Below are positions 58,356-64,000 of a stretch of DNA of 64,000 nt, piece by piece. The stretch comes from a bacterium (GTDB lineage Bacteria > Electryoneota > JAOADG01), in the NCBI GenBank assembly GCA_963681965.1, contig OY820579.1, forward strand, positions 3,936,001 through 4,000,000. The letters run 5' to 3'. A program made the position numbers and the translations under genes. Every line of letters starts with the position of its first letter. Positions within the stretch are counted from its first letter, which is position 1. Under the pieces are notes generated by a model. That model saw nothing but the letters and a program-made list of their open reading frames with translations. It ran no database searches and was not told where the DNA came from.

Positions 58356-59609
58356 TTAATCGTCGATAAAAAACTGGCGCGACGATTTCATCACTTTATC
58401 CCACAAGAATGTACCACGCTCGATTCCGAAAATGAATAGATAATTGTCGATGTGGACGCGTGCCGACTTCCACGAAGTCAGTTGCGCCACTTTATTTACC
58501 CAATTATCGTACTCCGCCTCATTGCGCGTTCGCAACGCCATCATCAACGCTTTTCGATTCGTCTGATCGAGGAATGTCTCTTTCCACGTCCCCTTCGGTT
58601 CGAAGACTGCGCCTACTTTCGGTGCTGCCGGTGCTGCCGGAGCAGTTGGTGCTTGTGGTGGAGTTGCCGCTACCGGAGCGGGTTTCGGTGGTTCCGGCAC
58701 GGGTGCTGCCGGTTTCGGAGCCATGGCTGGAGGTGGTGTCATCGCCGGTGGCTTCACTGCCGGAGTTGCCACTGGTGCCGGTCGCGGTGGTGGCGGTGGC
58801 GGCGGAACCGGACGTGTTGGTGTGGAAACACCTAATCCAAACGCATCATCTTCATCGATCTTGGCTGGCTCTGGCGGCTTCGCTGTCATCGGTGGCGGTG
58901 TCTGCGCTGGTGCCGGTCGTGCCGCTGGTGCAGGTGCCTGTGCAGGTGCTGCCGGCATTACCGATTCCAGCGGTTCTTCGGTCGTCGTGCTCAGGTCGTG
59001 GAACGAACCACCCGAAATCATCTTGCGGGTGACAACGTAATCTTTCCGCAATGCATTATAGCGCGCCATAATCAGCGCGAGATCGTCGACACCGATCGCA
59101 TTCATTCCGAGCGATTCTTCCAACCGCACCACATCGGCAAGCACTTTCACTTCCGACATATTCAACACGGTGGCGATCACACCGGGTTCCAGCGTCGTTC
59201 CACTGAAACCAAGACCAGTCGCGCGTTCGAAGACCTGTTTTGCCAAATCGATCGAATCGGCTTCCAACCCGCGCAAATCGATCGGGTTGTCCGACCAGGT
59301 TGTACGCACTTGATCGAATGACTTTCCAACCGCTTCCTGCAATTCATTTTGCGAAAAGGTGAACGCATTGAGAATCGCTTCGACGACTGCTTCACGCGTT
59401 TTGGCATCGACCAATGCAACATCGAATTGCGGGAGTGTCAGCAAGCGATCGATTTCGGCTTCTACCGACTCTTTCGCTTTCGCCGACAGTCGGTCGCGCA
59501 CCTCAGGCGACTTGTTCCATTGCGTCAATTCGCGGTACGGAAGACTCGCTCTCCCTTTCAGTAAATCGTCGATCCAGCCGGCAGGTACGGTTTGTTGTGA
59601 CACGCCCAT
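58356..59609 (-). CDS. Hypothetical protein: helical N-domain, long Pro/Ala linker, small helical C-domain
   Basis: 417-aa ORF with GGAGG Shine-Dalgarno; polyproline-rich middle; last gene of the mgl-like operon. Confidence 0.85.
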   Translation of the reverse strand: MGVSQQTVPAGWIDDLLKGRASLPYRELTQWNKSPEVRDRLSAKAKESVEAEIDRLLTLPQFDVALVDAKTREAVVEAILNAFTFSQNELQEAVGKSFDQVRTTWSDNPIDLRGLEADSIDLAKQVFERATGLGFSGTTLEPGVIATVLNMSEVKVLADVVRLEESLGMNAIGVDDLALIMARYNALRKDYVVTRKMISGGSFHDLSTTTEEPLESVMPAAPAQAPAPAARPAPAQTPPPMTAKPPEPAKIDEDDAFGLGVSTPTRPVPPPPPPPRPAPVATPAVKPPAMTPPPAMAPKPAAPVPEPPKPAPVAATPPQAPTAPAAPAAPKVGAVFEPKGTWKETFLDQTNRKALMMALRTRNEAEYDNWVNKVAQLTSWKSARVHIDNYLFIFGIERGTFLWDKVMKSSRQFFIDD

Positions 59610-59631: not shown

Positions 59632-61560
59632 CTACGAATTCGGATGTTTAGTTTGATATTTATCGCGAATTGATTCTAATTGAAGTATGTCTAGATGATC
59701 GACGCCGACATAAGCCACGATCTCGACCCCTTGCGCGACTTCCTTCTCATTGACCCCTTTCAGGATCTGCATCACGCATTCGATCGGAACTTGCGTCTCC
59801 GGCATTCCCATCTCGAGAATGAATCCTTCCAACCGGCGGAATTGTCGGATCACCAATTCCCAGCGGCGTTTGATCGGCATTCCGTCGATATATTCCATAA
59901 AAGACGATTTGAGATTGGCATCGGAATAACCGGTCTGAATGGTTTGCGAAAGAATCGTCCGAAATTCCGGATCGATCTGATCGCGGGTAATAATTTCGTG
60001 CAATGCAGCTTCGATCGATTGATAGTTCGTTAATCGATTGCAGAACGCTGTCAATGTCGGTAATGGTTCCAGAACCAGTCCGATTTCCAATGCAATCGCG
60101 CGCCGAACGAGTTCCATCCATTCCCGTTTCGTTACCATCCGCTTCTTCGCCAGATGATTGCGCAACTGCATCAGGATCGATCTGCTCTCTTCGTCATGCA
60201 GATCGAAGGCATGCGTCAATTTTCCGATCGTGCCGTCGACATCTTCGGTCATCATCAAAACGACCCAGCTCCCAATTCGCGGAGGTATTTTCGCCATCGG
60301 AATTTTATCGATCGGAAGCGATTCGACTTTATCCTGCCAACTCTCCTTGGCAAGGTCGTGCATCTTGACAAATAGCTCGGCAATTCGCTCGGTCGTTCGA
60401 AAATCCTGCATCTCCTCGCGATGTTCGCGTACTTCCGGTTTATTTGCCGGACGTTCCGCTACTGCCGGCGGGGGGGTACGCGGTTGCATAACCGGTTGCG
60501 GTGCCGGTTGAGCTGCGGGTTGCGGCATCGGATGCACCGGCGGCGGAGTGGGAGCGGAAACCGGCATCGGTTGGCGCGCGGTTTTCGATTGAATCGTTTC
60601 CGCCGACAACGGCGCTGCGAACGAGAAGCGTTTGGATTCCGAAACTGGTTCCTGCAATTCCTGCGGAGCAATTTCATCGAGTGCCGAAAAGGTCTCGATC
60701 GGCGGTGTCGTCACTTCGGGTTTTCGATACGGCGTGTTGATCGACGTCTTCTTGATACTGGTAACCGGTTCGATGAATTCGATGTCGTTGTTTTCGATGT
60801 CGTCTTCACCGAGTAATTCATCGGAAGCACTCGCTTCGTCCGATACGCGCGCCGCATCGATGACCAGCGTTTGCCATTGCTTGCCGATCGTCTTTTGGGT
60901 GCGGACATACGGACCGACCGTAAATTTTCCGCCGGGCCATTGAAACATTTCGTAGAAGGCATCGACACCGACATTCGCAACCGTTTTCGCGTGGATGATG
61001 ATACCATTGTCGATTGCGATGATTCCTTCATTGCGACCGGAATTCACTTTCAACGTAGATTTTCGACCGCTGATTCCGAGTAGCTGAATCACCTCCGCCA
61101 TGTGCAGTTGTCCGACAATCCCCTCGAATCCACTCTTATCCTTATCGGAAAGAATGTTGGTTACTTCGCGTCGCAGCAATTCGAAATCGAATGGTTTCTC
61201 GATATAGTGTACTGCGCCGAGTCCGTAACTTCGGGTACGCAACTCGGGGCTGGAGAATCCGGTCATGACGATGAATTTGATATTGGGATGTTCTTGCTGC
61301 ACCCGCACCATTAAATCCAAACCGGACAGATTCGGCATTCGGATATCGGTGATAATTACTTCGACTTCAGGATTTTCCCGAATGATACTCTCGACTTCCA
61401 ACGGGTCGGTAGAATAAAGCGTCTCGATATTTTCGTCGATCGAGTCGAATAGTCCCCGCAACGCGAGTACGATATCCTCCTCGTCGTCGACGACGATAAT
61501 TTTATGGAGGGGAACGTCTTGATCGTTCGGGTCCGGAATTTTTCTCAGTCGATTTGGCAT
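59632..61560 (-). CDS. Response regulator: REC + DUF4388/PatA-N + Pro-rich linker + helical C-domain
   Basis: VVDDE, ITDIRMP (phospho-Asp), MTGF, IEKPF; GFEGIV.QL...EVIQL..GIIIHA..GVDAFYEMFQWPGGKF. Confidence 0.88.
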   Translation of the reverse strand: MPNRLRKIPDPNDQDVPLHKIIVVDDEEDIVLALRGLFDSIDENIETLYSTDPLEVESIIRENPEVEVIITDIRMPNLSGLDLMVRVQQEHPNIKFIVMTGFSSPELRTRSYGLGAVHYIEKPFDFELLRREVTNILSDKDKSGFEGIVGQLHMAEVIQLLGISGRKSTLKVNSGRNEGIIAIDNGIIIHAKTVANVGVDAFYEMFQWPGGKFTVGPYVRTQKTIGKQWQTLVIDAARVSDEASASDELLGEDDIENNDIEFIEPVTSIKKTSINTPYRKPEVTTPPIETFSALDEIAPQELQEPVSESKRFSFAAPLSAETIQSKTARQPMPVSAPTPPPVHPMPQPAAQPAPQPVMQPRTPPPAVAERPANKPEVREHREEMQDFRTTERIAELFVKMHDLAKESWQDKVESLPIDKIPMAKIPPRIGSWVVLMMTEDVDGTIGKLTHAFDLHDEESRSILMQLRNHLAKKRMVTKREWMELVRRAIALEIGLVLEPLPTLTAFCNRLTNYQSIEAALHEIITRDQIDPEFRTILSQTIQTGYSDANLKSSFMEYIDGMPIKRRWELVIRQFRRLEGFILEMGMPETQVPIECVMQILKGVNEKEVAQGVEIVAYVGVDHLDILQLESIRDKYQTKHPNS

Positions 61561-62057
61561 TAAAGATCCAGCGGCTCGTCACCGCCCCCCCGTATGGCGT
61601 CGACAATATCCTTCCACTTTCCCTTCTGAGGATCGATATCGGCGTCAGCCTGTTGACTTCGTTCAGTAATGATTTCGCCGATTTGCAGCGCAATCTTCTC
61701 CGAATACATTTTCACCATTCCCAATGTGGTTGCTTCATTGAAGATCGCAACCAGCAGATGATCGGTAGTCAATTTTACGACAAATATTCCGTTCTTTTCC
61801 CCTTTCCAGAACGTCGATTCGAAATTCGTTTCGCCGGCAACTTTCGCCGTTTCCTTGGCGGCGCCGAACGAAGCGGCGATCAGGGTTGCCAATCCGATCG
61901 GATCGGTCAGCTCGCTCGAACCGACTCGGGCATAGATATAGCCATCCTCACCGATCAACAGCGCCGTCGAAGCTTGTGCCTCTTCGATCAGTACCGTGAG
62001 ACAGGTGGTTATGACTACAAGAGTCGATTCGTCGATGGTCGTGTCGCGGATAATCAC
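61560..62057 (-). CDS. mglB: MglB-like Roadblock/LC7 protein
   Basis: ALLIGEDG, LATLIAASFGAAKETAKVAGE..F...F.KGE, LVAIFN..TTLGMVK; directly downstream of mglA. Confidence 0.85.
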   Translation of the reverse strand: MIIRDTTIDESTLVVITTCLTVLIEEAQASTALLIGEDGYIYARVGSSELTDPIGLATLIAASFGAAKETAKVAGETNFESTFWKGEKNGIFVVKLTTDHLLVAIFNEATTLGMVKMYSEKIALQIGEIITERSQQADADIDPQKGKWKDIVDAIRGGGDEPLDL

Positions 62058-62059
62058 GG

Positions 62060-62827
62060 TTACTTGCCCTTACCGAATAACCGACCAAGCCATGCGAACA
62101 TGCCGGGTTTCTTAGCCGGAGCTGCCGCTTTTTCTTCCGGTTTGGCTGCCGGTGCACTCTTCGGTTTTCCGATCGTGGTCGATGGTGTCGGCGGCACTTC
62201 GGGTGCTGGTGCCGATGCTGCAGCAGCATCGACTTCGGCGAAAATTGTTCGTTTGAAATCTTCAATCACACAGGTAGTGATCGCTTTCAACGTATCGAAT
62301 ACCCCTTGTCCGGTCAGCGCTACCGCCTCGACAAACGGCAATCCCTTCGAATTCAATTCGATATTAAGAATATCGAGTGGAATTACGCCTGGGATGTCAC
62401 GCTTGTTGAATTGAAACACGAGTGGAATCGTATCGGGATTCATTTTCAGTTCGCGCAAGTTCGCCATCAAATTTTCGAGACTCTCTTTGTTCTCGGCGAT
62501 TTTTCCATGCTGCGAATCGGCAACGAAAACGATGCCGTCTGCACCCTGCAACACGAGTTTCCGCGACTGGTTGTAATAAACCTGACCCGGAACGGTGAAG
62601 AGTTGCATGCGCAACGAAAATCCCTTCACTTTTCCGATTTCCAGTGGAAGTAAGTCGAAGAACAACGTGCGATCCTGCTGGGTTGCAACTGAAGACAATT
62701 CGCCTCGTTTATCGGCGGGTAGCATTCGATGAATCGTCTGAAGATTCGTGGTTTTACCGCATAGCCCCGGTCCGTAATAAACGATTTTACATTCTAATTC
62801 GCGTTTTGCATAATTGATGGTTGCCAT
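62060..62827 (-). CDS. mglA: MglA-like small GTPase with C-terminal extension
   Basis: Start revised to ATG 62827; KIVYYGPGLCGKTTN, DRTLFFD, TVPGQVYYN..RKLVL.GADG.VFVADS, NKRD, GQGVFDTL. Confidence 0.93.
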   Translation of the reverse strand: MATINYAKRELECKIVYYGPGLCGKTTNLQTIHRMLPADKRGELSSVATQQDRTLFFDLLPLEIGKVKGFSLRMQLFTVPGQVYYNQSRKLVLQGADGIVFVADSQHGKIAENKESLENLMANLRELKMNPDTIPLVFQFNKRDIPGVIPLDILNIELNSKGLPFVEAVALTGQGVFDTLKAITTCVIEDFKRTIFAEVDAAAASAPAPEVPPTPSTTIGKPKSAPAAKPEEKAAAPAKKPGMFAWLGRLFGKGK

Positions 62828-62858
62828 ATCGGATCCTCTGCAAGATCGGTTGAGTTGC

Positions 62859-63212
62859 TTACTCTCGTGAATAATTGCCAATACTATCCAATCGCGTTTG
62901 AAGCGAACCGGCAAGTGCCAGTAGCTGACCGTAATTGGCGTTGGGTTCGGTTATTGCCGTTAGCAGCACCGAACCGCCATCGACGGTCACGACCGTTCGA
63001 TCGTCCAACGTCAGCAGCATCGTGCGGTAGTTGTCGTCGTCGATCTGCGCCAATGCGGTTCGCAAATCGTTGGCATAATTCGCCAGCCGCGGACCCAAGT
63101 GGTCGGTCTTCGATTCCGGAAAATGCTCGATCACAATTCCATCCCGGTCGATTAACTCGACTTCAAGGATGCCGTCCGCTGTAATAAAACTATTGAAAAA
63201 AGAATTCTTCAT
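62859..63212 (-). CDS. Roadblock/LC7-like protein (MglC-like)
   Basis: GILEVELIDRDGIVI...ANYGQL; size and alpha/beta pattern of the Roadblock fold. Confidence 0.65.
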   Translation of the reverse strand: MKNSFFNSFITADGILEVELIDRDGIVIEHFPESKTDHLGPRLANYANDLRTALAQIDDDNYRTMLLTLDDRTVVTVDGGSVLLTAITEPNANYGQLLALAGSLQTRLDSIGNYSRE

Positions 63213-63221
63213 ACCCTTAAC

Positions 63222-63596
63222 TCATAATTTGATGAGTGGTAGTAAAAAACGTGCCGTCTGCTGGCTCAGTTTCCAGGAATGATCCACTTCCGTATTCCAG
63301 CAATAGACAATCAGGTATTCGCGATAAACCAAACAATGCAATTGCGTCGATGGAAGCGATACCGAGAATTGATCGAACGCTTTCTCGGAATGCTCACTCG
63401 CGGTTCGCAATACCCGTAAGTACCGGATCGCTTGTCCGGCGACCGTCAGCTGTTCCTGACGCTCCATCGATCCGCATTGAAGAACCGGAAGTCCTACCGC
63501 CGAAACGATCATCACATGACGCATTCCCGGTTTTCCGGTAATCGTCGCAAGCACCGATTCCAGCGATTTGGGCGGAAAGAGGCGCCAGTACCACAT
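63222..63596 (-). CDS. Divergent Roadblock/LC7-like protein
   Basis: LESVLATITGKPGMRHVMIVSAVGLPV resembles the Roadblock N-terminal alpha-beta-beta unit; start revised to ATG 63596. Confidence 0.55.
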   Translation of the reverse strand: MWYWRLFPPKSLESVLATITGKPGMRHVMIVSAVGLPVLQCGSMERQEQLTVAGQAIRYLRVLRTASEHSEKAFDQFSVSLPSTQLHCLVYREYLIVYCWNTEVDHSWKLSQQTARFLLPLIKL

Positions 63597-63597
63597 T

Positions 63598-64000
63598 TTA
63601 TAAGCCTTCCAGGAAATTGGTAAAGCTGCTGACTTCTTGTTCTGCCAATTGCGCAATGTCTTCAGCCTTCGTCAGCAATCCTTCCTTGTTCATCAGATGC
63701 AATCGCTCGATCGCTTTCAACCATTCGTCACCGGTTAACGATTCGCCGCGAAGTTTCGCTTCCACATTGATCGCGTGAACATAACCGCCTAATCCGCGAT
63801 CGGTCAACATTTCCGCGATATCTGTCGATATAAATTTTCCGTCCCACTCTTTATCGCGTGCAAGCAACGTGGAAATGTCGCGGACAATTTCCTTGATTCC
63901 ATTCAATGGTTGCGCTGCATACGATTTCTCGACGGCATTCGAAATCGATACTTGAAATTCCCGTCGCGAGAGTTTCAGTTGCGGTGAATCCTGCAAGAAC
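63598..64000 (-). CDS. Hypothetical helical protein, C-terminal part only (runs off the right end)
   Basis: Open frame to the window edge; stop 1 nt before the next start codon. Confidence 0.75.
   Translation of the reverse strand, partial: FLQDSPQLKLSRREFQVSISNAVEKSYAAQPLNGIKEIVRDISTLLARDKEWDGKFISTDIAEMLTDRGLGGYVHAINVEAKLRGESLTGDEWLKAIERLHLMNKEGLLTKAEDIAQLAEQEVSSFTNFLEGL

Follow-up and report, generated by a model that had tools for sequence, protein, structure and literature searches.

MglA is the model Ras-like switch of bacteria and is regarded as a single-domain protein of the cytosol whose placement depends on its partners. The window (the whole stretch of 64,000 nucleotides that was analysed, from contig OY820579.1 of a member of the Electryoneota) contains an mglA gene whose product continues well beyond the G domain, which raises the question of whether an MglA can carry a membrane anchor of its own. 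A first-pass annotation had described this extension as a linker followed by a MinD-like membrane-targeting helix, and had suggested Ras-like tethering and possibly Min-like patterning with MglB as GAP. Our results retain the first part of that interpretation, as the tail is real, conserved and MinD-like in shape, whereas Min-like patterning is not supported by the evidence collected here. Judging from the sequence, the protein is probably an active group-1 MglA equipped with its own membrane anchor. The host is known here from assembled genomes; its genome is designated G000, and the other G numbers denote relatives in its phylum.

The mglA gene and its G domain

The features of the locus are listed in Table 1. 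The ATG start codon of mglA is preceded at a distance of 6 nt by GAGGA, and given this pair a longer, 284-aa product initiated at a TTG codon is not needed. A plus-strand ORF of 286 aa (61554-62414) was rejected as a shadow, since both mglA and mglB scored above it in dicodon analysis. A tblastn search revealed a single MglA in G000.

Table 1. Features of the mgl locus, with positions in the window
Feature	Position	Strand	Basis and remarks
mglA, 255-aa product	62060-62827	minus	ORF translation; ends in KKPGMFAWLGRLFGKGK, then stop
MglA G domain (aa 1-195), predicted group-1 type	62243..62827	minus	G21, K25, R53, T78, Q82 and NKRD present
Ala/Pro/Lys-rich linker (aa 196-238), 43 aa	62114..62242	minus	Composition; length and sequence not conserved
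Basic, predicted amphipathic C-terminal segment KKPGMFAWLGRLFGKGK and stop	62060..62113	minus	Putative helix core MFAWLGRLF at 62075-62101
MglB, 165 aa, Roadblock/LC7	61560..62057	minus	PF03259; MglB structures, E 3e-11; NF052242 below cut-off
117-aa member of the Roadblock family, next to mglA on its upstream side	62859..63212	minus	PF08923 and PF03259 over cut-off
Probable second Roadblock-like protein, at most 144 aa	63222..63656	minus	Weak PF03259, E 0.098; small ORFs at this place in relatives
Response regulator (REC, DUF4388, Pro-rich linker, C-terminal part), 642 aa	59632..61560	minus	Domain pair also in G003, G036, G006 and G023
417-aa protein, long Pro/Ala-rich middle between two domains	58356..59609	minus	No family; last ORF of the probable operon
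289-aa ORF, 3' part in the window	63598..64000 (runs to 64467)	minus	No family; several relatives have an ORF of about 300 aa in the corresponding position

The alignment with M. xanthus MglA (6hjh; E 1.3e-66) covers residues 1-193 and contains no gap, and the protein also matches T. thermophilus MglA (E 7.8e-64). The M. xanthus chain comprises 195 aa and does end soon after the G domain, as the first-pass annotation had it; together with the gapless match, this defines an extension of about 60 aa. Translation, alignment and composition bear out both the place of the tail and its content, an Ala/Pro/Lys linker with a predicted terminal helix. The intrinsic arginine finger (R53), the catalytic glutamine (Q82) and the TxxGQ motif that replaces DxxGQ are all present, and by its sequence the G domain is that of an ordinary group-1 MglA. 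A FastTree phylogeny of 279 G domains defines a clade of 28 rows to which the protein belongs, all of which retain R53, T78, Q82 and NKxD. In M. xanthus, two α-5 lysines are described as contacts for the MglB tail (PMC6785124); of these, K181 is kept in all 28 rows and K185 in five; in the present protein position 185 is occupied by Thr.

Gene organization around mglA

The mglA gene lies in a run of minus-strand genes, in the order 635-aa ORF, 148-aa ORF, 289-aa ORF, two Roadblock-like genes, mglA, mglB, the REC-DUF4388 gene and the 417-aa ORF, with gaps ranging from -77 to 31 nt. The mglB gene starts 2 nt downstream of mglA and is overlapped by 1 nt by the REC-DUF4388 gene; its product is likely to be the GAP of this MglA. 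The 635-aa and 148-aa ORFs lie beyond the window. The former (G000:C1:4000847-4002754), which points the same way as the mgl operon and is separated from it by short gaps, resembles by eye a receiver-PAS-histidine kinase. For the 289-aa ORF no Pfam family was found, and an Atlas search with its 297-aa counterpart from G036 gave no usable match.

We compared this organization with 10 tailed mglA loci in relatives, scanning 24 neighbouring ORFs against Pfam. A Roadblock gene follows mglA in G003, G036, G009, G023 and G039, and a REC-DUF4388 gene does so in G003, G036, G006 and G023. ORFs similar in size to the 417-aa ORF also close the operon in G036, G009 and G006. We take DUF4388 to be the same as the PATAN domain. 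PATAN-domain neighbours of group-1 MglA have already been described (PMC4316618).

Polar placement of MglB in M. xanthus depends on three basic residues, two of which are retained in the present MglB; to this extent, the tail does not visibly replace that route of placement. Among the MglBs of the tailed loci, R115 is kept as Lys or Arg in nine of ten and K120 as Lys in four of ten, while the K14 region aligns poorly.

Composition of the tail and chance tests

Residues 198-239 include 13 Ala, 9 Pro, 5 Lys and 4 Glu among 42, a composition from which we infer that the linker is disordered. No Cys occurs in the last 60 residues, and hence there is neither a C-terminal prenylation cysteine nor a CAAX motif, which argues against lipidation. 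The core of the terminal segment, MFAWLGRLF, has a hydrophobic moment of 0.69 and a mean hydrophobicity of 1.08, and the last 17 residues carry a net charge of +5. The corresponding values for the E. coli MinD control are 0.62, 0.44 and +2, so that the resemblance to MinD in shape, proposed earlier, is borne out by the moment; the MinD end KKGFLKRLFGG that had been cited for the comparison also agrees with the fetched E. coli sequence.

To classify C-terminal ends we used the following rule: an 8-residue window inside the last 20 aa with a hydrophobic moment of at least 0.6 and at least four bulky hydrophobic residues, including Phe or Trp, together with a net charge of at least +2 over the last 18. 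The rule was tuned after these sequences had been viewed, a first version with an 11-aa window having missed the short KKRGFFKRLFGIK class. Both controls, E. coli MinD and the FlhG-like protein of G000 itself, pass. Among the 2672 ORFs called in G000, 78 pass the rule and 74 have a polar linker; this MglA is the only one with both.

When the 60-aa tail was shuffled, 0.3% of 10,000 trials passed, as did 49 of 11,300 shuffled tails from 113 tailed homologues. Shuffling the last 20 aa alone gave 9.6%, and the rule also fires on four of 39 short, tailless MglAs; on account of these two figures the moment alone is moderate evidence. It is conservation that bears most of the weight for the helix.

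Conservation of the tail

The tail is a common property of the clade. A survey of homologues, which had been proposed as a check, found that 25 of the 28 rows pass the amphipathic-end rule, one further row being cut by a contig end. Tail lengths vary from 34 to 144 aa and the linkers are not conserved, whereas the end is retained. In 23 long-form ends that can be read in register, the pattern is G-hydrophobic-hydrophobic-x-[KR]-hydrophobic-x-x-hydrophobic-hydrophobic-[KR], with the leading Gly in 20 of 23, Lys/Arg likewise in 20 of 23, and small residues at the two adjacent x positions. It is kept by residue class: Phe, Leu, Ile, Trp, Met and Val swap freely at the hydrophobic positions. G000 and G003 share their last seven residues exactly, although four codons differ by synonymous changes. 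Such class-wise conservation, combined with synonymous change, is the pattern expected if selection maintains a helix that faces lipid.

Matches to MglA occur in 15 of the 79 genomes of the phylum, 12 of which contain strong orthologues, one of them cut by a contig end. Nine of the 11 complete orthologues pass the rule; those of G036 and G006 fail it, and their ends (MWKKLPFRFRK and LWERLTTFLNPGR) are basic aromatic motifs. The absence of the tail from close orthologues, which would have told against the anchor, was thus not observed. No MglA match was found in G001, a member of the same genus (96% complete, 720 contigs), or in G002, of the same family (100% complete), and the mgl module is therefore patchy even among close kin. 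Two genomes of the phylum also contain tailless MglA paralogues of 193 aa, in a distinct mglB-mglA locus. The nearest protein that bears a species name (P0006, from Ca. Electryonea clarkiae) falls inside the same clade. A search for related loci with MglA alone as the query gave five distant ones.

These data bear on the possibility that the tail is neutral read-through or an assembly artefact with a helix that arose by chance. The variable linker would suit such an origin, as would the lack of an MglA match in the same-genus G001, and amphipathic windows are not uncommon in ends that are basic and rich in aromatic residues, as the shuffled last 20 aa demonstrate. Nevertheless, the end is conserved across the clade in independent genomes and over synonymous changes beneath identical residues, whole shuffled tails seldom pass, and one contig, which may be the source of this DNA itself, spans 61400-63300 without differences. 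The possibility is largely refuted by conservation, and we consider it very improbable. The tailed MglA is real and conserved.

C-terminal ends in other MglA clades

In an IQ-TREE analysis of 60 chosen rows, three clades with amphipathic ends were recovered with support of 97/99 (that of the present protein), 97/93 and 99/90, and a clade with transmembrane ends with 100/99; the backbone is unresolved, and a 51-row tree was similar. Members of the second amphipathic clade, which includes proteins named Zixibacteria, often end in KKRGFFKRLFGIK, a near-copy of the E. coli MinD end. In the transmembrane clade, which includes proteins named Planctomycetota, a C-terminal transmembrane helix follows the same kind of linker. 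A transmembrane helix thus stands, in a sister clade, at the very position of the amphipathic end.

The best 120 full-length matches comprise 79 amphipathic, 13 transmembrane-like, 7 short, 7 acidic ELRPY, 7 beta-type and 7 other ends. Since full-length searches favour tailed proteins, the search was repeated and scored on residues 1-193 only. Among the 120 proteins that are then nearest by G domain, 30 have amphipathic and 5 transmembrane ends, 39 are short, 38 end in the acidic ELRPY motif (the named ones being Fibrobacter proteins) and 8 end otherwise; 19 of the nearest 26 are amphipathic. A profile search of 50%-identity representatives added 149 new proteins, of which 50 have amphipathic ends, 16 a transmembrane stretch, 2 ELRPY and 81 other ends. 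The 38 ELRPY proteins among the G-domain neighbours indicate that many tailed MglAs end in motifs other than membrane anchors.

The Fibrobacter MglAs (P0280-P0344 and the P0094 cluster) have a long linker followed by a conserved acidic DDEIELRPY[VI]PKKK, which looks like a protein-binding motif. Single proteins carry a FliN C-terminal domain (P0167; PF01052, E 5.7e-23) or a TPR (P0200) at the end of the tail; these could be links of MglA to the flagellar switch, or assembly chimeras. In P0024, P0061, P0203, P0219 and about 45 relatives the end is small and beta-rich, with no Pfam match in the members scanned.

Taken together, the ELRPY, beta-type, FliN and TPR ends suggest that MglA tails also carry modules for protein contact. 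The end of the present protein might likewise be a short motif that docks on a protein (Roadblock, the REC-DUF4388 protein, the acidic MglB tail or a polar landmark) and not on lipid. The MglB tails in its clade are acidic, and the MglA ends carry net charges of +3 to +8 in 26 of the 28 rows; moreover, M. xanthus MglA is placed by protein partners, in agreement with what PMC3199381 describes. On the other hand, the end is conserved by residue class and not by identity, its motif resembles known membrane-targeting sequences, and another clade has a transmembrane helix in the same position. Protein docking therefore seems to us rather unlikely, and the reading of the tail as a membrane anchor is well supported by comparison of the sequences.

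A proposed membrane leash for MglA

The arrangement that we favour is one in which the terminal helix would lie in the inner membrane and the linker would leash the G domain to it. On anionic inner-membrane lipids the last 17 residues would fold as a helix; M243, F244, W246, L247, L250 and F251 would insert, and the flanking Lys and Arg residues would rest on the head groups. In E. coli MinD, according to PMC6803595, the anchor binds weakly and has to be present in two copies, which ATP-driven dimerization supplies; B. subtilis MinD is described in PMC13246001 as binding the membrane as a monomer. The predicted helix of the present protein exceeds the E. coli MinD anchor in both hydrophobicity and basic charge, so that a single copy would probably be enough and the bound nucleotide, GTP or GDP, would probably make little difference to binding. 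Thanks to the linker, MglB dimers and effectors close to the membrane would be within reach of the G domain; T. thermophilus MglA is reported to be a monomer in both nucleotide states and to bind the MglB dimer 1:2 (PMC3199381).

With one helix of greater strength and a long leash, MglA would be expected to reside fairly constantly at the membrane, and the transmembrane clade fits this, as such MglAs cannot cycle off the membrane. As with Ras and Rab, the site and timing of MglA activity would then be governed by its GAP and its activators and not by membrane cycling. On balance, this MglA is likely to be a signalling or polarity GTPase that is leashed to the membrane by its tail and whose position is set by MglB, the Roadblock proteins and the REC-DUF4388 protein. 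Its output, the least certain step, would most likely be the placing or switching of a polar machine under two-component input.

A different arrangement is a switched anchor, in which the helix would be hidden on the G domain, or too weak, in one nucleotide state and exposed in the other, and MglA, with MglB as its GAP, would cycle on and off the membrane, self-organizing like MinDE or ArcoAB. There are precedents: FlhG hides its anchor in the monomer, as described in PMC6803595, and ArcoA is reported to oscillate from pole to pole in a manner that needs an N-terminal amphipathic helix (bioRxiv 10.64898/2026.07.23.738820). Also in its favour, MinE has no match in any of the 79 genomes of the phylum, with or without MglA, and G000 contains no MinD or MinC over the cut-off; furthermore, the scarcity of K185 in the clade indicates that the surface of the MglB-tail pocket has changed. 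However, it is not obvious how nucleotide state would act on a helix held by a 40-aa leash, linkers of 34-144 aa uncouple the helix from the switch regions, the transmembrane versions are unable to leave the membrane, and MglA as known from T. thermophilus is a monomer. The Pfam scans of the neighbours found no SepF- or MinC-like gene, and 64 of the 79 genomes have neither an MglA match nor MinE, so that this is not the general division-site system of the phylum. We regard a switched anchor as unlikely. The same grade applies to the wider proposal that tailed MglA and MglB form a membrane-bound, self-organizing pattern former, a Ras-family counterpart of MinDE and Arco, with exchangeable C-terminal tags that MglA repeatedly acquired across several phyla; the tags would be an amphipathic helix, a transmembrane helix or protein-binding motifs, on a Ras-like hypervariable leash with no lipid modification.

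The Min-like patterning suggested in the first-pass annotation is thus speculative: the T. thermophilus protein is described as monomeric (PMC3199381), MinD as needing dimerization (PMC6803595), and MglA occurs in so few genomes of the phylum. Replacement of Min by MglA was considered and rejected, since MinE is lacking in all 79 genomes regardless of MglA and no link is shown. A link to type IV pili was considered as well. PilT, present in G000 together with flagellins, has a match in all 79 genomes; neither PilT nor MinE therefore tracks MglA. G000 also codes for an FlhG-like MinD-family ATPase (G000:C1:1479072-1479989), located in a flagellar cluster and bearing its own C-terminal amphipathic end.

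Comparison with known systems

Like the group-1 MglA-MglB pairs of M. xanthus and T. thermophilus (6h17, 6hjh, 5ymx and 3t12), the present MglA has a gapless G domain with R53, Q82 and TxxGQ and an adjacent MglB, and it shares PATAN-type neighbours with known group-1 MglAs (PMC4316618). Unlike those of the two model species, which end at about 195 aa, it has a 60-aa tail with a predicted terminal helix and Thr in place of K185, the gene order is mglA-mglB, and extra Roadblock genes lie upstream. M. xanthus MglB itself is reported to bind liposomes weakly (10.1101/577387).

As in MinD and FlhG, a short, basic, Gly-flanked segment, predicted to be an amphipathic helix, occupies the extreme C-terminus of an NTPase and passes the same rule. 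The present protein is, however, a Ras-family GTPase and not a dimerizing ATPase of the ParA/MinD type; its helix is more hydrophobic, its polar leash is longer, and neither MinE nor MinC was found in G000.

ArcoA (DipA) of Haloferax volcanii is likewise a prokaryotic Ras-superfamily GTPase with an amphipathic helix; it is reported to be membrane-bound through this helix, with a partner that stimulates hydrolysis, in the same preprint that calls the MglA family cytosolic (bioRxiv 10.64898/2026.07.23.738820). In the present protein membrane binding is predicted. ArcoA belongs to a separate family, its helix is N-terminal, its partner is the SepF-like ArcoB and it carries an FtsZ antagonist, ArcoC, whereas here the helix is C-terminal and the neighbours are Roadblock and REC-DUF4388 genes.

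The layout of a G domain, a flexible, unconserved linker and a terminal anchor, the last predicted here, is that of Ras and Rab (PMC4915359), and anchoring by an amphipathic helix is described for Asgard ArfR (10.1101/2024.02.28.582541). The analogy to the Ras tail, made in the first-pass annotation, is thus reasonable as an analogy and not as descent, as this tail lacks Cys and CAAX; Arf differs in that its helix is N-terminal and nucleotide-switched. For archaeal Rab-like proteins, PMC4915359 and PMC10933270 report no C-terminal membrane signal, and PMC3718981 mentions MglA in passing.

In the literature covered, which included few subscription journals, we found no account of MglAs that are anchored at their C-terminus by an amphipathic or a transmembrane helix, and such proteins are apparently undescribed in print. 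The reference survey of MglA left out sequences longer than 240 aa (PMC4316618), and it is this length filter that caused the main survey to miss the tailed MglAs. At 255 aa the present protein exceeds the surveyed range of 150-240 aa, which is a filter and no functional criterion.

Should the tail bind lipid, the MglA switch of many little-studied bacteria would operate at the membrane, held there by an anchor of its own. The layout of Ras and Rab, with its G domain, variable leash and anchor, would then have been reached without prenylation, a point of interest for the possible origins of signalling by small GTPases at membranes. Among eukaryotic GTPases, Rheb has reportedly been the subject of a study on changing membrane anchors. 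MglA with and without its tail, MglB and liposomes would form a small, reconstitutable set with which to ask whether anchoring a GTPase together with its GAP suffices for membrane patterning.

Divergent copies

The phylum also contains divergent MglA orthologues of 281-485 aa, encoded at L038:8548-9393 (G020), L039:8996-10402 (G010) and L054 (G054). These have lost R53 and Q82, end in GGLWRRLA[KR] and fail the amphipathic-end rule. Their P-loop end is altered, and their genes still lie beside Roadblock-like genes; by sequence, they are candidate membrane-leashed pseudo-GTPases. In addition, two tailed loci code for MglBs of 490 and 528 aa (L035:2147-3619 in G023 and L037:7210-8796 in G039), in which the Roadblock domain is followed by a very long C-terminal extension.
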